DNA of 64,000 bases, from assembly GCA_951406725.2 (NCBI GenBank), contig OX597814.1:13082001-13146000 (forward strand). Reading direction: 5' to 3'. This DNA comes from Octopus vulgaris (lineage: Eukaryota). Positions within the stretch are counted from its first letter, which is position 1. Each line of letters begins with the position of its first letter. Made by a program: the position numbers and the translations under genes. This document shows positions 1,950-56,398 of this stretch, piece by piece. The notes beneath the pieces are model-generated. The model saw nothing but the letters and a program-made list of their open reading frames with translations. It was not told where the DNA came from and searched no databases.

Positions 1950-3000
1950 TGGTATTTCTATCTCTGTATGTCTCTCATTCTTTATTGTTATCTTCCTTTT
2001 TCTTCTGAACTTTCTCCTCCTTGCTGATCGTTGGTAAAGCTTTCTGTCTTCGCTCCTCGATCCCTTCACTTAATTTGTTGGCCTTTCATTTTCTTATTTG
2101 CTCTTTCACTTGTTCTACGGTCTGTGTCTCCTCTTCCTTTCCTTTCCTTTTCTTTCTAGGACTTTTTGGTGATGACTACGCGTTACTCTCCTTCCTCTTC
2201 AACACTGTATACCTGTATACGGTGCTTCCATATTCTGCTATTCTACGGTTGAAACTTCTTGATGTTCTTTCTTTATCCCCTCCCCTTCGTGTTTTTGGGG
2301 ACACTTAGCTTTCATGTGTCCCCGTACTCCACAACGCCATTACCTCTGCAATTTTGTGGAGGTCTGGTAAACTGATGTGAAACGACACCTCAACGCCATA
2401 ACCCCAGCAGTTTACCCCCGTAGTTCTTGTGATTTGAAGTATGTTGGTTTCCTGTTTGTATTATAGAGGATGGCTGCCACCAGTGACACCTCGTCAATTT
2501 CTGGGGGCACTCTAGCAATCCTAACTCTGGACACACGTTTGCCACAGTAGGTTGGTAGTAGTACCCACTCAGTTGATCTCAAAGGCACAGTGGAGTATTT
2601 TATTGCTTCTTGTTCACTCGCGAAACGTACCTACACTGTGCCATATCTCTTTCCCCCAGTGTAGTACGTCGTTAGACTTTTGATTTCCCTAGGCAGCTTC
2701 AGCCTCAGGCTGTCTCCTTCCTTTCTTAACAATTCATAGTACTTCATAAAATTAGCTTCGTTCAGTTGAATTTCTCTTACTTGCAGTATATGTGCCGTTA
2801 GATTCTTCCCAATCACTGCAGCGTAACTGCCTGCTGGAACTGGTTGACATTCCATAACGATATTTTCCACAACTATACCCATAAATGGGGAAGAAAAATA
2901 AACATTCAGGTAACAAGAAATCTAGCATTTCGCTAATACAACAATTAGGTGCGGTAGTCCTTCAACAATTTAAACAACAAGAAAACTCATATAAAGCGAA
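1950..3000 (-). mobile_element. Decayed gag-like ORF1 of a LINE (possibly L1/Tx1-type)
   Basis: Minus strand reads GGKRYGTV*VRFASEQEAIKYSTVPLRSTEWVLLPTYCGKRVSRVRIARVPPEID, then a broken zinc knuckle WRCGVRGHMKAKCP (~2298-2339) and a K/E/R-rich tail. Confidence 0.55.
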
Positions 3001-4109
3001 CACACATCAAATGCAACAGAATCAAATGACTCGAGTAGAAGACGATTAGCCGGAGATGTTTTTTAAAATGAGAATATCTGAAATATACTCAACTTCTCTA
3101 ACAAACGAGAATACTAAAAATGAACCCGACTACTCTCAAAATTCAAGTAAAAATAACCGGAAGAATAATCCAGAATCTTTGTCCGGTACCTGATCGATCC
3201 CAATGGTAGTCATGGAATGTGAAGGTGATGGTAGAAAATTTTGTAACAGTATTAAATTGTTTATCCATATCTAAGATAAGCCAAAGTTTAAAAAAAAATC
3301 ATCATTCAAAATACTTTCAAAGGCGAAGGTAATAATCATAAGTTCTACTCAAAAATGTTTTAATGAATAGCATGAGACCCTTTGGTTTTTTCTGCTCTTA
3401 AATCCCGGCCTTCCTTAACTATTTCTGTTGTTTTAGATCGATATATAGATGCACGTATATACGTATGTATAATGTAAATTGTTAATAAGTATGTATAATA
3501 TATAATGCATATATTATAAAAATATGGTAGTGTTACTTTATTTCTGAACGGTGTGGCTGTCGTTGGTTTATGTAGTTTGATTTCTTTATCCATCAGTTTC
3601 TATTAAGTTAGAGTCGCGAGTAAAATTAATAACAGAGAAACGAAAATGAAAGCAATGCCGCCATAATTTACGTGGAAACCACGAGCATGCTTTCGAGGGA
3701 GATAGTAAGACATCGTAGTTCTTGAGATATCTTGTCCAAGGAAAAACAATGAAGCACTACTGACAACAATACGTCCGCCTTAGCGACGGCGGAGGTAATA
3801 ATAAGACCAAAACAAGCTAAAGAACATACCCAAATAGTTGGGTTTATAGCGACGCAGGCAAAACTAAATACACATAAAAACGCACTCACTAAACATTCTG
3901 AGAAATGTTTGTCGCACATTAAAGAATGAAAATGTTATTCCTTCAACATTTATCATTTACTTTTCTTTCAACTACATTTTGTAATACAGCTGTTTGAAGT
4001 TATGAAAAATAGTTTAGACCCGAACATCGAAGCCAAATGAAATTTATTAATCTTATTTGATGAGTGTAACATACGTGGATATATTCATAAATAAATACAC
4101 ACACATACG

Positions 4110-4169
<60 letters not shown>

Positions 4170-5335
4170 TACAGAGAGAGAGATATATATTTGTAGCGTG
4201 TGAAAGGGCGGGAAGAGAGCAGGTATGTAGATATTCGGAGAGAGGGAATGAGATAGAGACGGAGGAATTTCATAATGTAATTGACGGAAATTACTTTGTT
4301 TTAACTAAATCGTTACCGAACGCAAAATAATTGATTTTCTCAGCGATAAATTCAATGACATGAAAATACATTGGAGAAAAATTGCTGAGTACATGATTTA
4401 ATAACTAATTAATTTGAGCGACATGCGTTGTATAAAAATATAAACGTTGCTGATAAAATTCTATTTAAAATTCCATTAGAATAAACCATAAAATAATCGA
4501 AAGCGATGCAGAATAGTTGGGTGGCCGAAATTAATTGTCTATGCTTTATGCAAAAGCAAACGTATTCTTCATACTTCCACATCTATGAATAGTCAAATTC
4601 TGTACTAATAGATGCTAAAACCAATACACGCACGCATACGGTGAGTCACCCATATACTAACCCTCTCACGCGCAAGATACATATTTGCAGGCGTACAAAC
4701 ACACGCACACGCGCCGCGCGCTCACACACACACACACACGTACACACACACGCACACCCACACACGCACACACACACACACACACATCCACACACACACA
4801 CACACAGACTTATGAAATGTAAATTCGTTAAAATATGATTGTAGCATATTTGAATTTCTAAATGCGAATTCACTGCAGCTTCCGTGGCGAAAAACTCTCA
4901 TATTGTGAAAGTCGTAAAAACATTACATCTGTTCTTTAGCCTTTCTCAATGAGAAATACCGATGTGAGCTAACATTGGGCAGATTGAAAGCCAGTTTTAA
5001 TTGAAAAGTAATAGACACCAGTGTCTCATTTGATTTAATGGATACCCTGGTGAGAATAAAAATAACAGCAACAGTGTAATTCTATCCTTATAAAAAGCAA
5101 AGTTTGTTTGCTTATTTGTTTGCTTGTTTCTTTGTTAGATTGTACGTTGACCGTTGAGAACACTAAATAAAATTGATATTTCAGGTTTTTTGTGTTATTT
5201 CAATTAATTTGACAATTCCGCAGATACCTGTGCACTTATTTTCCAAAAACAGATTGGTGGGGGGGGGATCCTATTTCTAGCAATCCACATGCTGTCTATT
5301 TCATAGTAATGCATTTTACAGAGTGAAAAATACTC

Positions 5336-5389
<54 letters not shown>

Positions 5390-5410
5390 CTTTTATTATT
5401 ATTATTATTA

Positions 5411-5560
5411 AAAAGCAACAAAATGTCAGAACAAACTATTACTCAGAGTTTCACGTTCCCGCTTGTGGAACAGTTTTCTTTAGAACGTAAACATAATTGT
5501 CCGGCGAACGGGAACGTGAAACTCAGAGTAACAGTTTTTGTTGAATTTCTGCTGCTTTTA
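5411..5560. repeat. ~150 bp fold-back element with two degenerate minimal hammerhead motifs (PLE-LTR-like)
   Basis: 5411-5476 is an inverted copy of 5495-5560. The right arm reads aattgt-CCGGCGA-acg ggaa cgt-GAAAC-tcaga-GTA-acagtt. Confidence 0.7.
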
Positions 5561-5633
5561 AATAAAGCATATTACTCTACCCCTGGTATTTGAGTACTCT
5601 TTTTCCACCTTGTTTCATTTATGTGTTTACTCC

Positions 5634-5705
<72 letters not shown>

Positions 5706-5845
5706 GCAATTAAGATTCAAGTAAATTCCAATGAATTTACTTGAATGTGGTACTTAACTTAGATGCACCAGAAAAACTATATAGTGTTATCCATACAGTA
5801 ATGTGGGGTGATTATAAACGAGAAAGAAGCAACAAGAATGGATTA

Positions 5846-5959
5846 GTTTTTAGTACAATTGTTTCATACAAAGACAGGCTTTATTACAAAGACAGGCTTT
5901 ATTACAAGTTGCAAAAATTGCAGCAGATAAAAGTGTCCCGTACTCATCAGCTAAAATAC
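5846..5959 (-). ncRNA. Type I hammerhead ribozyme motif (inverted copy of 6697-6792)
   Basis: Same core and stems on the minus strand. The 18-bp duplication lies within the stem II insert. Confidence 0.78.
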
Positions 5960-6696
5960 ATTTGAGTTCTCTAGACATCTTAGGCGCCTTCTCTATATAG
6001 GCGCCTTTTCTTTTCTCCCTATTCCACTTTTTCTTTTTTCTTTTCCTTTTTCTTCTTTTTCTTTTTTCTTTTTCTTTTCTCTTTCTTTTTCTTTTCTATC
6101 CTTCTCCCCCGTTTCTCTTTCTTTTTCTCTTTTTCCTTTTCTTTTTCTTTTTCTTTTCCTTATTTCTTCTTCTTCTCCTTTTTCTTTTTCTTTTTCCTTG
6201 TCTCTTTCCTTTTTCTTTTATTTTATTTTCTTTGCCCCACAAATAAATTCCTTCAGCCTTTAGAAATCTCAACATAGCAGTTTTGCACGGAGAGCAATAA
6301 CATGGCAAATTACCTTATCATATAGCATGAAATGATTGTGGATTAATAATGGTTAAATACATCATCTGTGAGTATGAAATTCCTCATCTTGCCACTGGAA
6401 ATGTAAATCTTCACTATGGATTAATTCACCTTTTCTGTGAAGCTAATAAGTCTTTAAAAACCTGTGATAAGTCTGTGCATCATCCTCCTCATATCTCTGG
6501 AAATTTAAATCTACACTATGGATTGATTCATCTTCTCTTCGAAACTAATAAGTTTTTAAAAATCTGTGATAAGACTGTGCATCATCATTAAGGAACTTTG
6601 GAAAACTTTTTACAACCTATATCTGCCTCTCATGGAACTATCTCCAATATTTCATGAGTATAACCTCACCCACTAAGATGTCTAGAGAACTCAAAT

Positions 6697-6792
6697 GTAT
6701 TTTAGCTGATGAGTACGGGACACTTTTATCTGCTGCAATTTTTGCAACTTGTAATAAAGCCTGTCTTTGTATGAAACAATTGTACTAAAAAC
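6697..6792 (+). ncRNA. Type I hammerhead ribozyme motif with extended stem II
   Basis: Stem I TTTTAG/CTAAAA; core CTGATGA 6706-6712; stem II GTACGGGACA/TGTCTTTGTAT; GAAAC 6773-6777; palindromic stem III AC-AATT-GT; cleavage triplet GTA (6782-6784). Confidence 0.8.
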
Positions 6793-6818
6793 TAATCCAT
6801 TCTTGTTGCTTCTTTCTC

Positions 6819-6858
<40 letters not shown>

Positions 6859-7324
6859 ATTAGTGGTTAGAGTCTCCGACTCACAGTCATGAGGTAATTT
6901 CATGTTGCGCCAATGCGAACGTCAACGTATCGGTGTGTGGAGAAAGGATTCTGTTATGCATAGGTTATCACTGGTCATCCATAGAAAACTTTGCCCGGAT
7001 TTTTGATTCGGAGGAACATCATAATTTTCTAGCATAATATAGATCCCTATGAGAGTTATGAAACAAATGGTAAACAGATACCTTTTGAACTTGACACTAC
7101 ACAAACACAATCAAAATGAACAATACTGACCATTTTTTCAACTTCAAGAGGCTTGTTTAGTTACAAAATAGTTTTAGAGACCTGTCACTTTGTATAGCTC
7201 ATGTTTTCATCCACTCGCACTAGACAAGACTATGGTGCAGTCAGAAAAATGTTTACCCTGAAAAAGAGACACCCTACTATATGTATGTGTATATGTATAA
7301 AAAAAACCCTTAAATATCCTTTAA

Positions 7325-8065
7325 AATGTTTCAGCCTGAAAGCTGCGCCCATGCTGAGGCACCACCGTTGAATGAGTTACACTAGTATGTGAAACCACCT
7401 CTGATACGTGGCACTTGATCAACAAGGGAGTTCGACGCCGCTGCCTGCATCTGTGTTTCCTGCCGAGTGGTAGGTTCATCTGGAACCCCTGACAAGAAGA
7501 GATCCAGTTTAGTTTTAAAGAAACCCACATCCACACCATGCAGGACTCTCAGGCATTTAGGAAGGATATTGAAGAGCTGTAGTCCCCTGAAACCCAAGCT
7601 GTTGCAGTATCTTGTCCGGTATTTTGATGGTGATGTTGGGATCTTTGGCACCATCCAGTGGCGCCCCGTTCTGCTGTTGGGATAACTTTGAATGCCAAAA
7701 TTCGGGACAAGACCCTCCAGGATTTTCCGGATGTATATCACTGCATGTCTCTTACGCCTTCGCTCCTGGGGGAAGAGTTTTAATACTTTCAGTCTTTCCC
7801 AGTAGCTAATACGTTGTATTGAGACGATCTTCTTAGTGTAGCTTCGTTGGATTGCTTCGAGTTCTGCTGTTAACTTCATATACCATAATATACCTTTATG
7901 ACCATAATTGGGAGCAGTAGTCCAAGCGGCTGAGGACGAATATCTTCCAAAGGACCATCACCGTCTCCTTCTCTCTTGTTCTGAAATTTCGGAGAATCCA
8001 TCCAGCTAGCCATCTGCATTTTATTAACATATTAGTAATATGCACTTGGAAAGACGCATCATTGC

Positions 8066-8066
<1 letters not shown>
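7325..8066 (-). mobile_element. Older 5'-truncated 3' fragment of the CR1-group LINE family found at 46.4-49.5 kb
   Basis: ORFs 7896-8198 and 7382-7879 align with the C-terminus of the intact ORF (LAGWILR..FRTRE..LDYCSQLWS; ELEAIQRSYTKKI..LDLFLSGVPDEPT). The 3' tail hairpin is shared. Confidence 0.92.
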
Positions 8067-8097
<31 letters not shown>

Positions 8098-8274
8098 TGT
8101 ATGTATGTATGTATGTATGTATGTATGTATGTATGTATGTATGTATGTATAGATGTATGTATGTGTGTATGTATGTATATAGGTATGTATGTATGCATAT
8201 ATATATATAGACATACATAGGTATATATAAATATATAAATATATAAATATATGTATATATGTATATTTATACAT

Positions 8275-8325
<51 letters not shown>

Positions 8326-8399
8326 TTGACACAGTACTTGTATATGCATCGTTTAAAGTTATTATATTTTGCTCATGTCCGTGAAGTTACCAGTTGAAT

Positions 8400-34169: not shown

Positions 34170-35550
34170 CCATATGTTTGCCCAGAATTTTTTGCTTTCT
34201 TCAGCATCCGGCAAGGATTTTCACCTCTTTATTTAACATCCAATTCCTGATAGACCCGTTTCTGATTTTATTCGAAAACTCTGTTTAATCTGTATTGCTC
34301 AATTCTCTGTTCACATCTATATAGTTTATGTGCTTTAGCTCTCAGCTTCTGTTTTAATTCCTCAAACAGAACACTGATTCCATTTCTCTTCACCCTATAC
34401 TTCTCCTCTGTAGCTCAGCACCTCAGCACGTTTCTCCCGCTGAGCTTCATTTCTGTATTTCCGTTCCAGAATATTAAGGTGTTTTCTGTTTTCGTTAATA
34501 GACTGCGTTATTCTCCTTTTCCACCATGGTTCCTTCAGCTTATTTTGACATTTACCTTTGACTTTCAAACATAACTTCAGGGCTATAAAGATCGACATTG
34601 CATTTATTAGATTGTTGGTGTTTGTGATGATGTCAATCCTGATATCACCAATGATATTTATCTTCCTGACCCATCCATTGAGTTTCTTTCTGTCTACTTT
34701 TTTAAGCCCCATGTAAAGGCTCAGTTCAGAAAAGGTCTAAATATCAATGATTTCATTAAAATGGATATTTGTTCCGCGGATCTCTCATCGCATTCCTCAT
34801 CAATAATCTCAGCTTCATGCTCCTTTTCTTCCTTCAAATCTACTGCCATAGTTTTACTATCTGCATTCTAATCCTCATCCTTCTGTTAACCCCTGGTCTT
34901 ACTATCCCTGAGCACCCGTCTCTTAATGCTTTCTAGTTCAAAAGGAGATTACCATAAATAGCTTGGTCACAGATATTGTTCACTTAATTCAAATAGGCCT
35001 CAGTCGCTTCATGCTGTGTGCTTTCTTTTCCTACATCCACTAGGGGACACGTTATTATTATTTCTCGGATTACCCGGAAAGTAGCACTCCGTTACAGCCA
35101 CTTTCATTTCATTTAGAAGTTGCTTGATGATTACTGGGCTGACACTGCTCGCCTGTGGATCACTTCCAGGCTCATTCACGCCTTTCTCGTTTCTATTTTT
35201 ATTTGACATTTCAGCACTCATGATAACGGTTAGTGAATTTTAGATTGCACAACCACCAGTATTTTTCCTATATCCACCATAGGATATAGGATTCCTGTAA
35301 TCCTGGTTTACTTTTTCGAGTTTCCGTCCCTGCAATGGGTGTTCAATGATCTTGATTGTTTCTGCCTCTCGAGTATATACTACTTTGATAGCTGTTGCCT
35401 CGTAAGTGTTCATTAGCCTTTATACATGTCTTGTTTTCCTTCCTGTAGGGTGTCAAAATACGAAGAATCATACACCTTCTTCCTAGAGCATGCTCTGCGG
35501 GTGCGCCGGTTTAGTCACTGACAATCCCAACATAAAAAATGGGGTAGAGA
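34170..35550 (-). mobile_element. Decayed 5' part of an R4/Dong-like retrotransposon
   Basis: NEMKVAVTECYF; LKKVDRKKL..I.TNTNNLINA..KEPWWKRRI..IN..RKHL, typical of the region N-terminal to RT in these elements. Confidence 0.6.
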
Positions 35551-36345: not shown

Positions 36346-36900
36346 AGTTAACAAGAATTGTATTGGCATTTATACATTTAGGCAGGTTTAAAGGGGTGGT
36401 GGTGGGGGACTTTTTGGGGGTAGGTATAGCGCAAAGAAATCATACTTGGGGGAGTGGTCCAGGAGTCAGTGGTAAATTAGATAGAAGAATAAATAAAAGA
36501 ATAAAAAAAGGAGAATAAAAAAATATATAGAAGAATAGAGTTTTAGGTAAATAAGGAAATTCTCACTTATACCTATACATACATGTATACATATACACAC
36601 ACACACACATATACATACACACATACATACACACACACCCATATATATATATCTATATACACACATACATATACATACATATATCTACATATATATATAT
36701 ATATACATATACACATACATGCATATACATATACACACACACATGTATATATACACACACACGACCACACATACACATACACACAAAAAAATATATATAC
36801 ATACACACACATACACATACACACATACACACACAAATCCACATACACACATGCACACACAACACACAAGACCCTATATACTCATATATACATATACACA

Positions 36901-36934
<34 letters not shown>

Positions 36935-37382
36935 CATAAATATGTGTACCTATTCATACCTACACATACACACATATACATACAAATACAAACCCATTCC
37001 CTAATTTTAATTTTATTATCTTCATTTATTACTTTTGTTATCTTTGACCGCTGGTCACAAGCATCTTGGCTACGACAGCTAGTCCCTTTTATCTTTCTAC
37101 TTGAGCACAAGCACTCACTCACGCACGCACACTCATTAGCACGCGCACTCACTCATTCGTACACTCATACACATACACGCACGCACGCGTTATATTCATA
37201 CATACATACATCTACATACATACACGTATATACACATACGTACGCGTACCTACAGATTCATGTCTACAATCTAAGAAGACTAGTCTATACGTATACACCA
37301 ATAAATATATATACACACATACATATACACCTACATACAAATACATACATACATATATATACACATATACATACACACACAT

Positions 37383-37440
<58 letters not shown>

Positions 37441-37574
37441 CCGCATACATACATACATACATACACTCATACATACATACATATATACACACATACACAC
37501 ACCCACACGTATACATATACATACATATACGCGCATGCATACACATACAAATACATACACATACACACATACAT

Positions 37575-37609
<35 letters not shown>

Positions 37610-37618
<9 letters not shown>

Positions 37619-37971
37619 ATACATACATATACATATATACACACACACATACATACACATATACACATACACGCACATACACATATACATGCGTACCCAT
37701 ACACACACACACACGCGCGCATCCATATATACACATAAGTACACACATGCGTAAAAGTATACATATATCTATGCTTACACATACACACACACGCCACTCC
37801 TTATGTTCATACTTACATGCATACTAAAAAAAAATAAGTAATAAAGTATATATACGTGCAGTTATTCATACATGCATACTCAAAAAATAAATAATAAATA
37901 GTAAATAATAAATATTAAGTATATATACGTGCAGTTACCTATTATACAGACGGATACATACATATAAACTT

Positions 37972-38036
<65 letters not shown>

Positions 38037-38519
38037 CTTACACATATGTACATATACATACACACATACATAACTCTACGTACCTACATATACCAAAACA
38101 CACGAGCGTACACGTATATGTACATATACACATACACATACACACACATATATACATACATACATATACATACATACATATACATATATACACACACACA
38201 TACATACACATATACACATACACGCACATACACATATACATGCGTACCCATACACACACACACACGCGCGCATCCATATATACACATAAGTACACACATG
38301 CGTAAAAGTATACATATATCTATGCTTACACATACACACACACACACGCCACTCCTATGTTCATACTTACATGCATACTCAAAAAATAAGTAATAAAATA
38401 TATATACGTGCAGTTATTCATACATGCATACTCAAAAAATAAATAATAAAAAGTAAATAATAAATATTAAGTATATATACGTGCAGTTACCTATTATACA
38501 GACGGATACATACATATAA

Positions 38520-38604
<85 letters not shown>

Positions 38605-38730
38605 CTTACACATATGTACATATACATACACACATAGATAACTCTACGTACCTACATATACCTAAACACACGAGCGTACACGTATATGTACATATACACA
38701 TACACATACACACACATATATACATACATA
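37610..38730 (+). repeat. ~565 bp internal tandem duplication specific to copy 1
   Basis: Markers CATGCGTACCCA (37688/38239), GACGGATAC (37950/38501) and CATACTTACACATATGTAC (38033/38601) occur twice here and once in copy 2. Confidence 0.85.
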
Positions 38731-38867
38731 CATATACATACACGCATATATACATATATATATATATATATACCTATATATATATATATATATATATACA
38801 TATACACACATACATACATATATACATACATATACATACACACACATACACATACACACACACATAT

Positions 38868-38915
<48 letters not shown>

Positions 38916-39019
38916 ACATATACACATACATACATACACATACATATACATATACACACATACACACACACATACATATATTCACACACACATACATATA
39001 CATACACACATACATACAC

Positions 39020-39066
<47 letters not shown>

Positions 39067-39135
39067 CATGTGTGCAAACATACATACATACTCATACACA
39101 CTCTCATACTTACATATACACATATACACACACTT

Positions 39136-39204
<69 letters not shown>

Positions 39205-39250
39205 CATATATATACACACATACACATATGTACACATACACATACATATT

Positions 39251-39308
<58 letters not shown>

Positions 39309-39521
39309 TGTATATATATATACATATATACACACATATATATATATATACATACACACACACATATATATATACCCACACCTACACATACACACATATA
39401 TACATATATACATACATATACACACATACACACACACACATATATGTACATACATACACATACATATACATATACATATACATATACACATGCACATACG
39501 TATAACTCTACCTACCCACAT

Positions 39522-39556
<35 letters not shown>

Positions 39557-39726
39557 CACATATATATACATATATATATGTATATATACACACACATATA
39601 TATACCCATCTACAATCTGTATATACACACACATACATGCACATACACATTACTCTACATACCTACATATACATTGACTTACTCGCGTACACTCATATAT
39701 ATATATATATATACACATACACATAC

Positions 39727-39765
<39 letters not shown>

Positions 39766-39826
39766 TATATATATACATACACACGCACATACATATACAT
39801 ATATATATATACACACACACACACAT

Positions 39827-39870
<44 letters not shown>

Positions 39871-40138
39871 ACAATTGAGGGTAAAGTTAATTAGTTATTA
39901 ATCAATTTCACCAAGTATTCAGTATGTAAAAGGACCATTATTTTTTTGAGTAAACATTGTCTGAGAGAAAATTTTCTTTAAGTAGTGGAAAAGGCTAAAA
40001 AACTTATTTGGCTGCTATTTCTAGAAATTTCAGTATGTGGCAAAGTAATTTATTTTACTAAGCCCTAATTATATAATATTTTATATATACATACACATAC
40101 ATACACACATACATATACACATACATATGCATACACAC

Positions 40139-40178
<40 letters not shown>

Positions 40179-40500
40179 GTGTGTGTGTATATATGTATAT
40201 ATGTATATATGTGTGTATGCATATGTATGTGTATATGTATGTGTGTATGTATGTGTATGTATATATAAAATATTATATAATTAGGGCTTAGTAAAATAAA
40301 TTATTTTGCCACATACTGAACTTTCTAGAAATAGCAGCAAAATAAGTTTTTTAGCCTTTTCCACTACTTAAAGAAAATTTTCTCTCAGACAATGTTTACT
40401 CAAAAAAATAATGGTCCTTTTACATACTGAATACTTGGTGAAATTGATTAATAACTAATTAACTTTACCCTCAATTGTTGATATATATATATATATATAT

Positions 40501-40788
40501 AAAGTCAATACCACCATGACTGATATCCAATCTACAGTGGAGAAGGCTAGCCACTGGATTTGGTTAAAAAGAGACGATGAGCGATGGCTAGAAGTATATT
40601 GAGTTCATCATAACCAGCTGATCTAGCAAGCGGGGCCTCATATCAGTGAGGGGGCCGGTGCGCATTGATGCCGTCGAGAGGTAGGCCCCGAAACGGCGCG
40701 CATTCTCTCCTGATGACCCCATACACTTGCTAGCTTCCGATATACGGAGCTTTTAACTGGTAGCACTTGCATGTGCAAGTTGTTTGCA

Positions 40789-40790
<2 letters not shown>
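40501..40790 (+). mobile_element. 5'-truncated 3' end of a HERO-like non-LTR retrotransposon inserted in (TA)n
   Basis: 40501-40602 encodes KVNTTMTDIQSTVEKASHWIWLKRDDERWLEVY* (cf. the HERO C-terminal ExASxWLWLKR motif), followed by a structured GC-rich 3' UTR. The empty site is at 45910-45939. Confidence 0.75.
40613..40761 (+). ncRNA. Candidate rearranged (non-circularly permuted) hammerhead ribozyme
   Basis: GCCGT-C (40670-40675) pairs with GAA-ACGGC (40690-40697). GAGAGG (40676-40681) pairs with TCTCTC, which directly precedes CTGATGA (40710-40716). Six additional helices can be drawn. Confidence 0.7.
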
Positions 40791-40836
<46 letters not shown>

Positions 40837-40895
40837 ATGTGTGTGTGTGTATGTATATATATATGTATATGTATGTGCGTGTGTATATATATATA

Positions 40896-40942
<47 letters not shown>

Positions 40943-41343
40943 GTATGTGTATGTTTATATATATATATATATATGAGTGTACGCGAGTATGTCGATGTAT
41001 ATGTAGGTATGTAGAGTTATGTGTATGTGCATGTATGTGTGTGTATATACAGATTGTAGATGGGTATATATATGTGTGTGTATATATACATATATATATG
41101 TATATATATGTGTGTGTTTATATATATATATATGTATATATGTATATGTGGGTAGGTAGAGTTATACGTATGTGCATGTGTATATGTATATGTATATGTA
41201 TATGTATGTGTATGTATGTACATATATGTGTGTGTGTGTGTATGTGTGTATATGTATGTATATATGTATATATGTGTGTATGTGTAGGTGTGGGTATATA
41301 TATATGTGTGTGTGTGTATGTATATATATATATATATATGTGA

Positions 41344-41949
41344 TGGGCACCGCCGGCAACAACGTACACCTCACCTCGATACTCCTACTGAACATCAGAG
41401 GACTGCAAACACTCAGTAACAGGACAAAGATCCCGTTCCTGAGAGACTTTGTTGCATGCAATCAAGCCTTATGCATAGCACTTACAGAAACGCACCTGAA
41501 ACCGGACATAGCAGATGCGGAGTTACACATACCACAGCATGCTGTACTACGGACCGACAGGAAAGAAAGGAGTCATGGAGGTGTTGCTATGTACATCCGT
41601 GAGGACCTCACACCCCAGGTCCTCTTGTCATACTCAAACTCGGTGTGTGACACACTAATTGTACATGTTAGGCAACTTGATGTAGTTTTGTGTGCTACAT
41701 ATCGCCCTCCAGATGCCCCAAGCCATGTGGGCAAGTTTGAAGACTGCCTTATAAAAATAGAAGAAATTCTAACCACATTAGAACAACACATAGGTGTGCT
41801 TCTTATGGGATACTTCAATCTTCCCAATGTCAGATGGCCCGAGGGCCTTTCTCTCCCAGGAATGACAAGATGTGAACGAGGACAGGCGAGGTCCCTCCTG
41901 AACCTCATCAACACCCTGTACATGGAGCAGGTAATACTCCAACCAACCA
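41344..41949 (+). pseudogene. Duplicated, truncated 5' 606 bp of the LINE (APE endonuclease part)
   Basis: Copy of 46454-47060 with 6 substitutions seen by eye, including catalytic GDFN>GYFN. Confidence 0.95.
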
Positions 41950-42303
41950 TGTTTTATGTATAATTATAATGTAGGGTATCTAAGAGATACCACCACGCTG
42001 GAAATAGCAGCCAAATTTTGACTCTAGAACCACATTAAATGTTCATACAGCGCCAGGAGAGAAGACAAAGAGACAAAATAAACAAGCAAAAAGATTACTG
42101 GATAATTCCAGATCCTTGATTTCTGGATTTGCATGAGAAATGCTCTGTTTTAACAGGGGAATATACTCAGATAGCTCATAAATACATACATATATATATA
42201 TATATATAAATATATATGTAGGTCCCGGGTTGATTCGGGGTTAACCACAGTAAATAAGGTACTCAATACATAGCAGAGTAAAATTAATTTATTATATAGA
42301 AGG

Positions 42304-42354
42304 AGCTTCTACAGGACTAGAACTGTTTCATTCAAGAGAAATCTTCAGGAAGCT
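42304..42354 (-). ncRNA. Type I hammerhead ribozyme motif
   Basis: Reverse complement of 51973-52023. Confidence 0.75.
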
Positions 42355-42916
42355 AGTTAACAAGAATTGTATTGGCATTTATACATTTAGGCAGGTTTAA
42401 AGGGGTGGTGGTGGGGGACTTTTTGGGGGTAGGCATAGCGCAAAGAAATCATACTTGGGGGAGTGGTCCAGGAGTCAGTGGTAAATTAGATAGAAGAATA
42501 AATAAAAGAATAAAAAAAGGAGAATAAAAAAATATATAGAAGAATAGAGTTTTAGGTAAATAAGGAAATTCTCACTTATACCTATACATACATGTATACA
42601 TATACACACACACACACACACATATACATACACACATACATACACACACACCCATATATATATCTATATACACACATACATATACATACATATATCTACA
42701 TATATATATATATATATATACATATACACATACATGCATATACATATACACACACACACATGTATATATACACACACACGACCGCACATACACAAACACA
42801 CAAAAAATATATATACATACACACACATACACATACACACATACACACACAAATCCACATACACACATGCACACACAACACACAAGTCCCTATATACTCA
42901 TATATACATATACACA

Positions 42917-42950
<34 letters not shown>

Positions 42951-43398
42951 CATACATATGTGTACCTATTCATACCTACACATACACACATATACATACA
43001 AATACAAACCCATTCCCTAATTTTAATTTTATTATCTTCATTTATTACTTTTGTTATCTTTGACCGCTGGTCACAAGCATCTTGGCTACGACAGCTAGTC
43101 CCTTTTATCTTTCTACTTGAGCACAAGCACTCACTCACGCACGCACACTCATTAGCACGCGCACTCACTCATTCGTACACTCATACACATACACGCACGC
43201 ACGCGTTATATTCATACATACATACATCTACATACATACACGTATATACACATACGTACGCGTACCTACAGATTCATGTCTACAATCTTAGAAGACTAGT
43301 CTATACGTATACACCAATAAATATATATACACACATACATATACACCTACATACAAATACATACATACATATATATACACATATACATACACACACAT

Positions 43399-43444
<46 letters not shown>

Positions 43445-43580
43445 CCGCATACATACATACATACATACATACACTCATACATACATACATATATACACAC
43501 ATACACACACCCACACGTATACATATACATACATATACGCGCATGCATACACATACAAATACATACACATACACACATAC

Positions 43581-43626
<46 letters not shown>

Positions 43627-43975
43627 ATACATACATATACATATATACACACACACATACATACACATATACATACACGCACATACACATATACATGCGT
43701 ACCCATACACACACACACAAGCGCGCATCCATATATACACATAAGTACACACATGCGTAAAAGTATACATATATCTATGCTTACACATACACACACACGC
43801 CACTCCTTATGTTCATACTTACATGCATACTAAAAAAATAAGTAATAAAGTATATATACGTGCAGTTATTCATACATGCATACTCAAAAAATAAATAATA
43901 AATAGTAAATAATAAATATTAAGTATATATACGTGCAGTTACCTATTATACAGACGGATACATACATATAAACTT

Positions 43976-44044
<69 letters not shown>

Positions 44045-44185
44045 CTTACACATATGTACATATACATACACACATACATAACTCTACGTACCTACATATA
44101 CCTAAACACACGAGCGTACACGTATATGTACATATACACATACACATACACACACATATATACATACATACATATACATACACGC

Positions 44186-44234
<49 letters not shown>

Positions 44235-44294
44235 CACACATACATACATATATACATACATATACATACACACACATACACATACACACACATA

Positions 44295-44328
<34 letters not shown>

Positions 44329-44462
44329 CATATACATATATATACATATACACATACATACATACACATACATATACATATACACACATACACACACACA
44401 CATACATATATACACACACACACATACATATACATACACACATACATACACATATATATATG

Positions 44463-44494
<32 letters not shown>

Positions 44495-44688
44495 CACATA
44501 CATGTGTGCAAACATACATACATACTCATACACACTCACATACTTACATATACACATATACACACACTTACACACACACATACACACACATATATATATA
44601 CACACACACATATATACATACATACATATATATATATATATACATATATATACACACATACACATATGTACACATACACACACATATT

Positions 44689-44720
<32 letters not shown>

Positions 44721-44943
44721 CATGTGTGTATATATATATATACATATATACACACACATATATATATATATACATACACACACACATATATATATCCCCA
44801 CACCTACACATATACACATATATACATATATACATACATATACACACATACACACACACACATATATGTACATACATACACATACATATACATATACATA
44901 TACATATACACATGCACATACGTATAACTCTACCTACCCACAT

Positions 44944-44978
<35 letters not shown>

Positions 44979-45240
44979 CACATATATATACATATATATA
45001 TGTATATATACACACACATATATATACACATCTACAATCTGTATATACACACACATACATGCACATACACATAACTCTACATACCTACATATACATCGAC
45101 TTACTCGCGTACACTCATATATATATATATATATACACATACACATACATATACATATATATATATATATATATATAAATATATATATATACATACACAC
45201 GCACATACATATACATATATATATACACACACACACACAT

Positions 45241-45300
<60 letters not shown>

Positions 45301-45567
45301 CAATTGAGGGTAAAGTTAATTAGTTATTAATCAATTTCACCAAGTATTCAGTATGTAAAAGGACCATTATTTTTTTGAGTAAACATTGTCTGAGAGAAAA
45401 TTTTCTTTAAGTAGTGGAAAAGGCTAAAAAACTTATTTGGCTGCTATTTCTAGAAATTTCAGTATGTGGCAAATTAATTTATTTTACTAAGCCCTAATTA
45501 TATAATATTTTATATATACATACACATACATACACACATACATATACACATACATATGCATACACAC

Positions 45568-45607
<40 letters not shown>

Positions 45608-45907
45608 GTGTGTGTGTATATATGTATATATGTATATATGTGTGTATGCATATGTATGTGTATATGTATGTGTGTATGTATGTGTATGTATATATAAAAT
45701 ATTATATAATTAGGGCTTAGTAAAATAAATTATTTTGCCACATACTGAACTTTCTAGAAATAGCAGCCAAATAAGTTTTTTAGCCTTTTCCACTACTTAA
45801 AGAAAATTTTCTCTCAGACAATGTTTACTCAAAAAAATAATGGTCCTTTTACATACTGAATACTTGGTGAAATTGATTAATAACTAATTAACTTTACCCT
45901 CAATTGT

Positions 45908-45947
<40 letters not shown>

Positions 45948-46008
45948 ATGTGTGTGTGTGTGTATATATATATATGTATATGTATGTGCGTGTGTATGTA
46001 TATATATA

Positions 46009-46063
<55 letters not shown>

Positions 46064-46453
46064 GTATGTGTATGTGTATATATATATATATATGAGTGTA
46101 CGCGAGTATGTCGATGTATATGTAGGTATGTAGAGTTATGTGTATGTGCATGTATGTGTGTGTATATACAGATTGTAGATGGGTATATATATGTGTGTGT
46201 ATATATATATATATATGTATATATATGTGTGTGTTTATATATATATATATGTATATATGTATATGTGGGTAGGTAGAGTTATACGTATGTGCATGTGTAT
46301 ATGTATATGTATATGTATATGTATGTGTATGTATGTACATATATGTGTGTGTGTGTATGTGTGTATATGTATGTATATATGTATATATGTGTGTATGTGT
46401 AGGTGTGGGTATATATATATGTGTGTGTGTGTATGTATATATATATATATGTG

Positions 46454-49450
46454 ATGGACACCGCCGGCAACAACGTACACCTCACCTCGATACTCCTACT
46501 GAACATCAGAGGACTGCAAACACTCAGTAACAGGACAAAGATCCCGTTCCTGAGAGACTTTGTTGCATGCAATCAAGCCTTATGCATAGCACTTACAGAA
46601 ACGCACCTGAAACCGGACATAGCAGATGCGGAGTTACACATACCACAGTATGCTGTACTACGGACCGACAGGAAAGAAAGGAGTCATGGAGGTGTTGCTA
46701 TGTACATCCGTGAGGACCTCACACCCCAGGTCCTCTTGTCATACTCAAACTCGGTGTGTGACACACTAATTGTACATATTAGGCAACTTGATGTAGTTGT
46801 GTGTGCTACATATCGCCCTCCAGATGCCCCAAGCCATGTGGGCAAGTTTGAAGACTGCCTTATAAAAATAGAAGAAATTCTAACCACATTAGAACAACAC
46901 ATAGGTGTGCTTCTTATGGGAGACTTCAATCTGCCCAATGTCAGATGGCCCGAGGGCCTTTCTCTCCCAGGAATGACAAGATGTGAACGAGGACAGGCGA
47001 GGTCCCTCCTGAACCTCATCAACACCCTGTACATGGAGCAGGTAATACTCCAACCAACCAGGGCAGGTAACACACTGGATCTCTGCTTCACAAATGACAT
47101 GGATCTCATCCATAATGTGAAAGTGACACCGACACTACTCTCGGATCACAACATGATAGAGCTGACCATGTACGGGCCAAAAGAGAGCACGGACATGCAG
47201 CCTACAAGAAACCCTCAAAATCTTTCCAGCTTGAACTACCATAAGGCAAACTGGAAACAAATTGAGAAAGAGATCCTCAAACAAAACTGGCCTAAATGTC
47301 TCTCCTCGCCAGACATCGACGTGAAACTTCAACAATTCATGTCTGTAATGCAAGCCATATGCTACAAATGTGTCCCAGAGAGAAAGGCCACTGTACACAA
47401 GAACAAAATCCCCAGAGACAGGAAAATTTTAATGAGACGGCGTACGAAATTTTCAAATCGCCTAAACAAACAGATTGAAAGCAGTGAAAAGTCCCGCCTA
47501 AAAATAAAACTGTTGGAAATCGAAAAATGTCTGCAACTCTCCCATGGAAAAGAAAGAGCAGACAAAGAAGCCTGGGCTATAGAAAACATAAAATCTAACC
47601 CCAGAGCTTTCTACAGGTATGCCAAAGAAACAGCTACAGTGCACTGTAGAATAGGGCCACTCCTCGAAAAGGATGGCACACTTACAGGAAAACCAATGAG
47701 GGTAAGTGAAATACTGAATGAGCAATTCAAGAGTGTTTTCACTCCACCCCTTGGGCATCTCCAAATCACCAATCCAACTGACTTTTTTACCACTGCAGAT
47801 ATAAAATCAGAGGCGGCGACGATAGATTACATCGATATAAAGGAAGACGATGTAACCAAGGCTATAGATGAAATGAAAACAGACTCAGCTACTGGCCCCG
47901 ATGGATTCCCGGCAATCCTCCTAAAAGCATGTAAGAGAGTCCTAGCAAGACCACTGCAGTTCCTCTTTCAGAGCTTCCTCGCAGCTGGCAAACTTCCAGG
48001 AAAACTGAAGGAAGGTAAAATATGCCTCATTCATAAAGGAGGTAGCAGAGCGGAAGCCAAGAACTATAGACCTATCTCTCTGACCTCACACATCAGCAAG
48101 GTCATGGAACGAATAGTCAGAAGGAAGCTGATCACCTTCCTTGAAGAGAATGACTTGCTGCCCGACACCCAACATGGTTTCCGACCAGGGAGAAGCTGTT
48201 TAACTCAGCTCCTACAACACTATGACTGGGTGCTAAAACGGCTGCTCAACCACTCAAATGTGGAAGTGATATATCTCGACTTTGCAAAGGCCTTTGATAA
48301 AGTCGATCATGGAATGATATGTCACAAACTGCGTGATCTCAACATAGTTGGAAAACTGGGAGAATGGCTTCATGACTTTCTGAAGGATAGAAGTCAGGTG
48401 GTAGTAGCCAATGGGGCCACCTCCATTAACACACAAATAGTGAGCGGTGTTCCGCAGGGCACTGTTCTGGGACCACTACTGTTCATAATGGCCCTCTCAG
48501 ACATGCCCTCAGCCACGCAGAGAGCCACGATCACAAGTTATGCAGATGATACAAAAGTTTCACAGGCAATACAGAACCCTGAGGACACTAAACACCTGCA
48601 ATGTGAGCTGGACGAAATATACAAGTGGGCTGAAAAGAATAGCATGCAGTTCAATGCTGGAAAGTTTCAAGCTTTATACTATCAGCATGCAAAACTGAAT
48701 GCAATACCCAATGAATACACTGGACCCGGAGGGATTGCAATCCCAGAGGCACAATCAGTGCGTGACCTGGGTATTCACATGAGTGATGACGCGACCTTTC
48801 ATGTACATGTTGCTAAACTGACAATGAAATGTAGACGGCTGGCTGGATGGATTCTTAGAACCTTTAGAACAAGAGAACAAGAAACCATGATGGTTCTCTG
48901 GAAGACACTTGTCCTAAGCCACTTTGACTATTGCTCTCAGCTATGGTCACCATCCAGTGTCAAGTTGATCACAGAACTTGAGGCGATCCAACGAAGCTAC
49001 ACAAAGAAGATAGCCTCTATGCAGAATGTAAGCTACTGGGAAAGACTCAAGAGATTAAAATTATATTCCCTGGAGCGTAGGCGGGAAAGATATGCCATAA
49101 TATACATCTGGAAGATCCTGGAGGGAAGTGTCCTGAACTTTGGCATCGAGAGTTACGCAAATGCCAGAACTGGGCGCCACTGCGTGGTGCCTAGGACTCC
49201 AAACCTGCCATCAAGATGTAGGACAAGATTCTGTGATAGCCTGGGCTTCCGAGGCCCACAGCTCTTCAATATCCTCCCGAAGAACCTGAGAGACCTGCAT
49301 GGGGTGGATACAGATGTCTTTAAAATGAAGCTGGATCTCTTCCTGTCAGGTGTCCCAGATGAACCAACTTCAAGGCAGGAGGGGCAGATGAGGGCAGCTG
49401 CATCGAACTCTCTCATGCACCAAATAGCAGTTGCTAGAAAGCCTCCATGA
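46454..49450 (+). CDS. LINE ORF2 protein: APE endonuclease plus reverse transcriptase (998 aa)
   Basis: APE motifs NIRGL, LTETHL, YRPP, GDFN, TLDL, SDH. RT motifs QHGFRPGRSC, YLDFAKAFDKV, GVPQGTVLGPLLF, YADD. CR1-group C-terminus LYSLERRR. The ORF-track start at 46403 is microsatellite read-through. Confidence 0.97.
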   Translation: MDTAGNNVHLTSILLLNIRGLQTLSNRTKIPFLRDFVACNQALCIALTETHLKPDIADAELHIPQYAVLRTDRKERSHGGVAMYIREDLTPQVLLSYSNSVCDTLIVHIRQLDVVVCATYRPPDAPSHVGKFEDCLIKIEEILTTLEQHIGVLLMGDFNLPNVRWPEGLSLPGMTRCERGQARSLLNLINTLYMEQVILQPTRAGNTLDLCFTNDMDLIHNVKVTPTLLSDHNMIELTMYGPKESTDMQPTRNPQNLSSLNYHKANWKQIEKEILKQNWPKCLSSPDIDVKLQQFMSVMQAICYKCVPERKATVHKNKIPRDRKILMRRRTKFSNRLNKQIESSEKSRLKIKLLEIEKCLQLSHGKERADKEAWAIENIKSNPRAFYRYAKETATVHCRIGPLLEKDGTLTGKPMRVSEILNEQFKSVFTPPLGHLQITNPTDFFTTADIKSEAATIDYIDIKEDDVTKAIDEMKTDSATGPDGFPAILLKACKRVLARPLQFLFQSFLAAGKLPGKLKEGKICLIHKGGSRAEAKNYRPISLTSHISKVMERIVRRKLITFLEENDLLPDTQHGFRPGRSCLTQLLQHYDWVLKRLLNHSNVEVIYLDFAKAFDKVDHGMICHKLRDLNIVGKLGEWLHDFLKDRSQVVVANGATSINTQIVSGVPQGTVLGPLLFIMALSDMPSATQRATITSYADDTKVSQAIQNPEDTKHLQCELDEIYKWAEKNSMQFNAGKFQALYYQHAKLNAIPNEYTGPGGIAIPEAQSVRDLGIHMSDDATFHVHVAKLTMKCRRLAGWILRTFRTREQETMMVLWKTLVLSHFDYCSQLWSPSSVKLITELEAIQRSYTKKIASMQNVSYWERLKRLKLYSLERRRERYAIIYIWKILEGSVLNFGIESYANARTGRHCVVPRTPNLPSRCRTRFCDSLGFRGPQLFNILPKNLRDLHGVDTDVFKMKLDLFLSGVPDEPTSRQEGQMRAAASNSLMHQIAVARKPP

Positions 49451-55290: not shown

Positions 55291-55621
55291 TTAAGTGTAT
55301 ATGGACAGTGTCTTGACATGCAACTGCATGCATGAGAATACATATATAAAACAAAACATACAAATTTGCACATATACATGCTTACATACAAAAATAACCT
55401 GTTGTTGTCGTTGAAATTCAAATGACGGAACCTGGGACCGATAATAGAAACCGACTTCTTTATTGGCAAAAAAATCTTGAAATAAAACTTAATAAGACAT
55501 ACAGCATAGATGCATAGATATATACATACATACATACATAAATACATACATACATACATACATACATACATACATACATACATACATACATACATACATA
55601 CATACATACATACATACATAC

Positions 55622-56398
55622 GTGTCAAAGTGCTGTCATCTGCCTGTCGGCTCTACTCCTGCAACTCAACTTGATTTCGAGCCGGGTCGTCTGCTGCTGG
55701 AGAGGACCGATCAGGTAAAGGACCTGGGTATCTTGGTGGATTCCTCCTTTTCGCCTTCGGCCCAGTGCGTCCAAGCTGCCAACAAAGCGCGCGGAATTCT
55801 GTTTTTGATTCGACGGTCATTCGGAATGCTCACAGCAGCCATATTCCTGCCACTCTATGTCACGCTGGTGAGACCCATATTGGAGTATGGGATTCAAGCC
55901 TCTTCTCCTTATCTCCTCAAAGACATACAGCACCTCGAAAGAGTCCAGAGGCTGGCTACCCGCATGGTTCATGGTCTCAAAAATTTGTCCTACGAAGAAA
56001 GGCTGAGGACGCTCGACCTTTGTTCTCTTGAAAAACGCCGCCGCAGTGGTGATTTCATTCTCGCCCACAACATCATAAGCGGGAAGTGTAACCTCTCGAA
56101 AGAGCTGTTCTTCACTCCTGCTCCGGGGCGTCGGCTGCGGGGTCATTCCGAAAAGCTCTACCTGCGACGATTTCATCTCAATCGAAGGAGAAGAGCTTTC
56201 TCCGTCCGGGTTGCGGATCTGTGGAACAAGCTGCCTGACGAGATGGTGAAGATGCCGACGACCGCTTTGTTCAAAGCCTCCCTGGACCTCAAGTGGCCTG
56301 AACTGTTTACATGAACACCACCCTGTACTTAACTCCATGTCCCCCTACATGGCCTTGCTATTTGCTTTTGAGCCAAATTAACTAACTAACTAACTAAC
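55622..56398 (+). mobile_element. 5'-truncated CR1-group LINE (different family) with a (TAAC)n tail
   Basis: Open 230-aa C-terminal fragment (KDLGILVD, LVRPILEY, LERVQRLATR, SYEERL, RGHSEKL, WNKLP). Tail TAACTAACTAAC at 56379-56398; inserted in (TACA)n. Confidence 0.93.

Follow-up and report, generated by a model that had tools for sequence, protein, structure and literature searches.

Positions 40500-40797 of the window, by which we mean the whole 64-kb stretch of DNA analysed here, hold only the last 299 nt of a retrotransposon, flanked by (TA)n tracts. On the forward strand, this piece opens with the last 33 codons and the stop codon (TGA at 40600-40602) of a single, 5'-truncated HERO-type ORF (40500-40602) that is identical to the C-terminus of P0001, the protein of the full-length copy L031. 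The genome itself (2.8 Gb) offers 2440 candidates for this stretch, referred to as family A, and the best 40 of them are practically identical, so that family A is young and the window copy a 5'-truncated piece of it. The full ORF was therefore read from other family A copies rather than from the window. These contain one frame of 1115 aa with the Pfam domain RVT_1, and by sequence and alignment reading P0001 combines a reverse transcriptase (RT) with what we take to be an N-terminal zinc finger, a CCHC knuckle and a PD..(D/E) restriction-like nuclease. Among solved structures, those of R2 and L1 proteins come nearest to it (R2 at E about 1e-17), and neither the GIY-YIG endonuclease nor the telomerase-like RT of Penelope-like elements was found in family A. 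By eye, the RT motifs resemble those of HERO-1_BF, HEROTn and HERO-1_SP, as given in the supplement to PMC7650587, far more closely than those of R2. The single ORF with RT and RLE and these RT motifs agree with a preliminary description of the locus, which had called the host HERO-like; we assign the element, by eye rather than from a tree of named elements, to the HERO-type RLE non-LTR retrotransposons as its probable class.

Directly upstream of the HERO fragment lies a MITE-like DNA element, consisting of 210-bp inverted repeats (39869-40078 and 40269-40480, 98.6% alike) around a microsatellite; similar sequence flanks a non-coding repeat, family D (see below), in locus L205. The window further carries an intact 1015-codon frame of an APE-RT LINE, CR1/L2-like by eye (46403-49447, forward strand), a 5' partial copy of that LINE (41340-41960), duplicated blocks in the region 36550-46000, and 3' fragments of other APE-type LINEs (55496-56311, forward; 7385-8372, reverse).

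Behind the HERO stop codon, the conserved nucleotides of a hammerhead ribozyme core are complete. C3-U4-G5-A6-N7-G8-A9 correspond to 40710-40716, G12-A13-A14-A15.1 to 40690-40693, U16.1 to 40674 and C17 to 40675, and stems I (6 bp) and III (5-6 bp) are in the correct register. Block S (40670-40681) comprises the 5' strand of stem III, the predicted cut after C40675 and a stem I strand (40676-40681). It is followed by block G (40684-40697), with the 3' strand of stem II, GAAA and the 3' strand of stem III, and by a stretch (40698-40720) that contains in turn a strand of the I-helix, the second stem I strand, CUGAUGA (40710-40716) and the 3' strand of arm A (40717-40720). Upstream of block S lie the 5' strand of arm A (40632-40635), which pairs with 40717-40720 directly after A9, hairpin B (40636-40650), the displaced 5' strand of stem II (40651-40656) and one strand of a helix linking the distal ends of stems I and II (40658-40663 with 40698-40703), the "I" interaction of type SGC. 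Further out, the region 40613-40630 provides the 5' strands of helices that extend arm A, namely 40613-40617, pairing with 40757-40761, and CUAGCAAG (40623-40630), pairing with CUUGCUAG (40726-40733). The preliminary description had placed every core element correctly and was off by one only for these last two strands. The 3' tail (40721-40797), finally, continues into the 5' start of the element in copies longer than one unit, and may be where reverse transcription starts.

As had been noticed, the order of the elements in the window, site-GAAA-CUGAUGA, is not circular: the block order of type I, II and III hammerheads is absent, and Rfam scans yielded no match to these or to any other ribozyme. 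A motif invisible to standard Rfam searches may occur widely without having been annotated. Chance is a poor explanation for the arrangement. With a descriptor that demands the order site-GAAA-CUGANGA (S-G-C) and at least 4 bp in each of stems I and III, none of 20000 dinucleotide shuffles of the 186-nt region matched, 4.49 Mb of shuffled element sequence gave one core match and no full match, and a scan of the 64-kb window returned a single hit, the present motif. Nested folding does not single the motif out (MFE z = -1.09), which is uninformative, as expected of a doubly pseudoknotted fold; in several lineages, the nested minimum-energy fold pairs up the core. We regard the fold as almost certainly real, and the motif as very probably an active ribozyme, whatever its role.

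The unusual part of the architecture is stem II. The strand after A9 pairs far upstream, forming arm A, and not with the stem II partner strand, while the stem II strand that provides G10.1 sits ~60 nt upstream instead of beside CUGANGA. The partner of C11.1 (40689) is thus a G on a separate upstream strand, with G40651 standing in for G10.1 in the window, and hairpin B is placed between that strand and arm A. At A9/10.1, a four-way junction is thereby made up of arm A, hairpin B, stem II and the core. The preliminary description had proposed a multi-way junction in the place of a directly formed stem II, and that part holds up: direct pairing between the letters after A9 and those before G12, as in an Eckert-type stem II, amounts to 0 bp in nine of ten lineages. 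It went too far in considering stem II replaced, as GGGGCC/GGCCCC is stem II, its canonical G-C closing pair coming from the distant strand.

Eckert et al. (2023; PMC10085705) defined the blocks S, G and C and found that type SGC cleaves. The present motif shares with their HRIMA-1 and its variants the block order, the short linker from stem I to stem II, all core letters and the extra helix that ties stems I and II together at their distal ends (described in PMC10085705 and consistent with its SGC-3 oligonucleotides). In type SGC, the stem II strand follows directly after CUGANGA, with at most 1-2 inserted nt, an assumption on which the scheme of six permutations is built (PMC10085705). By contrast, block C is broken here: the stem II strand lies upstream of the cleavage site, two extra helices make up a four-way junction, and direct pairing is possible only in a T variant of family D. 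The layout can therefore be restated as SGC in which the segment "stem II strand + I-helix strand" has been shifted to the front and two helices have been added at A9/10.1. The possible novelty of this topology consequently shrinks on one side, because the block order has been published as type SGC, and stands on the other, for the split stem II with its four-way junction. A further difference concerns the habitat, as type SGC was known from metatranscriptomes only, with none in genomes of known organisms (PMC10085705), whereas the present motif belongs to retrotransposons in an animal genome.

None of the tested SGC ribozymes has the split at A9/10.1, and it could be detrimental to catalysis. 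On the other hand, Penelope hammerheads naturally have one extra nucleotide between A9 and 10.1 (PMC4209133), indicating that the backbone has room there. The window copy has five G after hairpin B, which leaves C40636 unpaired, while in copies with six G the junction is without unpaired nucleotides. A fixed difference of five versus six G between upstream and downstream copies was considered and discarded, since the change was found in both directions and looks like slippage. Besides, hairpin B in group A (window 40636-40652) is nearly complementary to stem I plus CUGAUGA (40704-40716), and an alternative, inactive helix is possible. Such an "off switch" is notable in group A only (0-13 of 300 shuffles, compared with 74-188 of 300 for L097 and groups B, C, D and F) and was rejected as a general feature.

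Homologues were gathered via the protein and not via the RNA. A metagenome scan returned ten loci, of which two were left out (L100, a 39-aa match with no HERO ORF, and L096, whose contig ends 127 nt past the match). The motif lies behind the homologous ORF in all eight assessable loci; five pass the strict descriptor, and three are decayed relatives of one of these with the same elements. Within the genome of the window, it is likewise found behind homologous ORFs in families A, B, C and F, and imperfectly in family E (candidates: B 158, C 206, E 889). C-terminal protein identity among groups is 28-56%. The C-terminus of family C, which has the same layout, is 59% identical to a fish protein resembling HEROTn by eye; this lends indirect support only to the suggestion in the preliminary description that HERO 3' UTRs of fish are arranged alike. 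Related loci were absent from the viral and prokaryotic collections scanned.

In a MAFFT alignment of eight close sequences (A2, where the L092 row lacks its 5' part), 92.9% of the cells pair, compared with 40-56% in slid controls, and both sides have changed in 8 of 30 pairs, a figure matched by 1 of 500 shuffles. As MAFFT misaligned groups C and D when run over all groups, cross-group pairs were counted on a core-anchored alignment of ten lineages. There, both sides have changed in 22 of 25 pairs while the core letters are invariant; its overall pairing of 98% is partly built in by the descriptor. Six helices thus recur with different letters in the ten lineages, in keeping with the conservation by compensatory change that had been predicted. 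The hammerhead core and an NUH site are present in the window and in 10/10 fitted lineages, with GUC or GUA as the cut site and a G as the partner of position 11.1 throughout. The pair under G12 is G-C in nine of the ten, its G on the distant strand, and G-U in the family D copy used. The I-helix measures 4-7 bp in all ten lineages, and arm A, three of whose four pairs change on both sides, is a continuous helix of 4-13 bp in the homologues. Single old copies are mostly decayed (the descriptor is passed by 3/30 in C and 4/30 in B). The majority sequences of families B, C and F agree with the model and leave no nucleotide unpaired at the junction. In the family E majority, all elements are present and their order is unchanged, but it fails the strict descriptor, as its stem I consists of three pairs followed by a mismatch.

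Family D, found by chance in a flank, is a tandem unit of 832 nt with one hammerhead per unit and 1290 candidates. We call it non-coding because its longest open frames are of low complexity, and its motif is only 39-50% alike to the other versions. About half of its copies (25 T vs 28 C, counted over overlapping loci) have a T before GAAA, with which a direct 7-bp stem II is also possible. Young family D arrays sit in (TA)n and (CA)n tracts (L205, about 1290-1140 and 450-305 on the reverse strand; L221-L250). As a further observation, families B and E and loci L096/L097 have, by eye, a tRNA-like stretch with A-box- and B-box-like parts between stop codon and ribozyme (L097 at about 1610-1680; L131, L133, L135; L252-L270). 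ARAGORN called no tRNA gene in 15 loci; possible roles of the stretch are to promote Pol III transcription or to signal processing of the downstream unit.

What the motif might be for is best judged from how the copies lie in the genome. When the first 209 nt of the unit served as query, 74 candidates were returned, of which 40 were scored and 30 examined. Twenty-five of these 30 loci reach the unit start, and each of the 25 runs on upstream, seamlessly, into the element's own 3' end, as do two further loci fetched later. The junction between 3' end and unit start is one and the same sequence save for point changes. Full-length insertions consequently contain the motif a second time, 124 nt upstream of the element start, and in these 1.x-mers the cut site is about 317 nt ahead of the ATG. 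The preliminary description, which took the motif for a 3' UTR module, missed this main point: by its second position, the ribozyme probably sets the unit length of a circular template. The remaining five loci begin at +30 to +54 in the unit, slightly above an even drop-off, and could mark a linear 5' end, which would speak against a circle.

After merging one duplicate pair and leaving out one complex multimer, 25 independent insertions had a simple upstream part, with an extra upstream length of 11-1979 nt (median 312). The upstream cut site is passed by 18 of them, and none begins within 10 nt of it. Over 20 insertions, upstream substitutions recur in the insertion's own downstream copy in 87 of 176 cases, and in the copies of other insertions in 149 of 1937. 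Such private variants common to both parts argue that both were copied from one template; in this respect, they resemble the paired LTRs of a single provirus. At the other end, 54 of 60 distinct terminal 3' ends are found at unit positions 3731-3735, about 120 nt past the cut, and shade into the AT-rich target with a few letters common to target and RNA (microhomology). Each such copy must hence have been reverse-transcribed across the site. The cut site is intact in 57 of the 60, the other three showing single substitutions, and no insertions or deletions occur there in these 60 or in 11 readable upstream copies. No target-site duplications were obvious by eye.

Of families A to F, the more-than-unit layout is documented for A, D and F; it matches the partial tandem, pLTR-like structure of Penelope-type elements with a hammerhead in the repeated part. 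For family F, which shares about 37% protein identity, locus L284 starts inside the 3' tail, continues through the whole ribozyme into the 5' UTR and has a variant in common with its own 3' end, and four copies of the family end at the matching point. Family D likewise has a fixed 3' end, about 250 nt past the cut, and scattered 5' ends. Its units are arranged head to tail, with 17 of 22 insertions longer than one unit and up to 3.4 units (2.7 in array L245/246), a count to be read with the fact that the query spans the cut site, so that single-pass copies starting there would rank low. None of 12 upstream stretches of C-like N-termini, all from old and truncated copies, contained an upstream ribozyme.

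Internally deleted family A units, about 1.1-1.4 kb long, retain both ends. Each (L050, L051, L054, L058, L060, L062, L063 and L070) keeps the 5' part and the ribozyme end and has a deletion of its own. One such unit (contig 2 of run X1) is the element's deepest contig in runs X1 and X3. In X1, which is RNA by guess only, a 1283-nt contig of an internally deleted unit crosses cut site and junction, its two ends overlap by 25 nt, and run X3 has the same deletion joint. This contig fits a circle of about 1.26 kb, and equally a transcribed 1.x-mer.

Our preferred interpretation, to which we assign a probability of roughly 60%, is that an SGC-order ribozyme with a displaced-strand stem II turns the RNA template of HERO-type elements into a circle, and that this is general in the families examined. 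An insertion longer than one unit would be transcribed through both copies of the motif. Going by hammerhead chemistry, each of them would cut after its NUH triplet, releasing a unit-length RNA with a 5'-OH and a 2',3'-cyclic phosphate. The ends of this RNA could re-form one ribozyme, as 20-31 bp span the site, in line with the earlier proposal that both halves stay paired after the cut, and might then be joined by the ribozyme itself or by a host ligase of RtcB type. From the circle, the RT-endonuclease would begin target-primed reverse transcription at an internal point some 120 nt past the cut, a mechanism suggested by the fixed 3' ends and their microhomology. The RT would then cross the sealed site, roll round the circle and stop at random. 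The expected products, mostly 5'-truncated copies of the window's type plus some 1.x-mers that regenerate the two-ribozyme master, are the pattern observed. The short internally deleted derivatives and the 832-nt non-coding repeat would use the same cycle, with more turns in smaller units, as a circle predicts. A bolder version, on which we put somewhat less than even odds, extends this to the HERO clade: a hammerhead of a seventh connectivity would cut and self-ligate a protein-coding circle around which target-primed reverse transcription rolls, the junction would favour ligation in the manner of the hairpin ribozyme, and HERO proteins would move a class of animal retrozymes such as family D.

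The circle model as such has been put forward earlier, for Penelope elements and for retrozymes (PMC4209133 and PMC7229834, respectively). Against a circle count the competing folds that pair up the core, as well as in vitro work on a Penelope element in which, according to PMC11167929, mutating the hammerhead left insertion unaffected, the template was mainly uncut RNA and none of the reads stopped at the hammerhead site.

The uncut main template of that Penelope element also lends some weight to the strongest rival, that only the upstream ribozyme matters. Like the 5' ribozyme of R2, it would free the element RNA from read-through transcripts and may aid uncapped translation, for which its position ahead of the unit start and the ATG is suitable and roles in processing and translation have precedent (PMC6765202 and PMC13725137). 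The template would be linear, the 3' ribozyme would stay uncut, and the upstream repeat would be rebuilt by a homology-guided template switch at the RNA 5' end. A linear RNA made by the cut, however, should give many starts at that site, and the 25 insertions show none, most of them running past it; besides, precise switching would have to happen several times over to build the family D arrays of 3.4 near-identical units. We consider this explanation unlikely.

Only slightly less plausible is a nicked circle, in which both ribozymes cut and the ends of the monomer are clamped by helices without being ligated, so that the RT jumps the nick. The base pairs spanning the site would be sufficient to hold both products together, and R2-type RTs jump between template ends. 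Such end-to-end jumps usually leave added or lost letters, though, and the site, which is crossed just after initiation, is preserved in the terminal copies down to three single substitutions, with no letter gained or lost.

Improbable, and a little more so, is that a hammerhead-derived fold serves to bind protein or to position the RT and does not cut in vivo, more-than-unit copies arising from read-through or from other circles. In R2, structured 3' UTRs do position the RT (PMC12222951), each family keeps a constant spacing between motif and 3' end, and competing folds pair up the core. Yet what is kept are all catalytic letters of the core, the NUH site and the G-C pair beneath the sheared G-A pairs, while the helices change freely, and the same retention is seen in the non-coding repeat despite its low similarity to the other versions. 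Catalytic letters kept while helices vary are the pattern of selection for chemistry. Finally, insertion ahead of old copies or DNA duplication, with an unrelated motif, is very improbable as the source of the tandem copies and largely refuted: the endonuclease favours short AT-rich targets like the element's own end and tandem insertion is known in site-specific RLE elements (PMC4640811), but the upstream part is present in 25/25 copies reaching the start, with a single junction, and variants are common within an insertion six times oftener than across insertions.

Placed next to known systems, the circle reading most resembles what has been described for Penelope pLTR elements, which are likewise autonomous and of non-LTR type, with partial tandem copies, a hammerhead in the repeat, an internal start of reverse transcription and a proposed circular template (PMC4209133 and PMC11167929). 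In Penelope-like elements, however, the RT is telomerase-like, the nuclease is of the GIY-YIG type and the hammerheads are minimal, belong to type I and have low activity, whereas the present elements have an R2-group RT, a restriction-like nuclease and a complete, pseudoknotted ribozyme. Family D and the internally deleted units are reminiscent of metazoan retrozymes, tandem units with one hammerhead each. In PMC7229834, these are described as carrying type I hammerheads in units of 170-400 nt, with circles shown and a mobilising partner (Penelope-like elements) only suggested; here, in contrast, the ribozyme type is common to autonomous HERO elements and it is the circles that we infer. With R2 and other non-LTR elements that have 5' HDV-like ribozymes, the family shares an RLE-type protein (as in R2) and a ribozyme setting an RNA end. 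According to PMC6765202 and PMC13580325, R2 has just one ribozyme, located at the 5' end, its template is linear and the cut determines its 5' junctions, unlike the present 5' ends, which ignore the cut and pass beyond one unit. The single ORF with RT and RLE, finally, is that of the HERO clade, whose insertion is mostly non-specific with some liking for microsatellites (PMC4640811 and PMC7650587). We found no ribozyme, terminal redundancy or circular intermediate for HERO in the literature searched.

What is new here is the split stem II with its four-way junction; the block order is not. In the literature searched, the term "type-SGC" was found solely in the 2023 paper (PMC10085705), and the accessible parts of PMC3088659, PMC6155905, PMC6765202, PMC4640811, PMC13580325, PMC13725137, PMC11662667 and PMC10162972 nowhere describe the junction. 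Hammerhead variants with additional helices have been reported (PMC13725137, citing Weinberg et al. 2015). The split stem II may therefore have an earlier precedent, for instance in subscription journals, Repbase Reports, bioRxiv supplements or the figures of PMC10085705, which lay outside our search. Either way, hammerheads of non-circular permutation, known before from anonymous metatranscriptome contigs, are now placed in an animal retrotransposon that is young, numerous in copies and equipped with intact ORFs, and a connectivity is added that the six-permutation scheme excludes. With this family, it can also be tested whether tandem retroelements are copied from circles that ribozymes have made, a question that dates back to 2014. 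The circle reading would imply internal initiation and rolling reverse transcription in an element of the R2 group, a group now used for gene insertion, and a clamped ribozyme that favours ligation would serve circular RNA production as well.

Some HERO insertions have further retroelements as neighbours. Penelope-like RT frames adjoin those in L033 (120-1460) and L034 (951-1568), both on the reverse strand, and L034 (G000:C11:84626000-84635900) holds, within 10 kb, several pieces of family A that point in opposite directions. Another RT-encoding LINE family has pieces in the window (34395-35240, reverse strand) and in L031 (1-2382 and 8330-9900), where the HERO 1.45-mer sits inside an element of that family. 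The corresponding empty site was seen in all four sequencing runs, joining 2919 to 8327 with 32 other letters in between.
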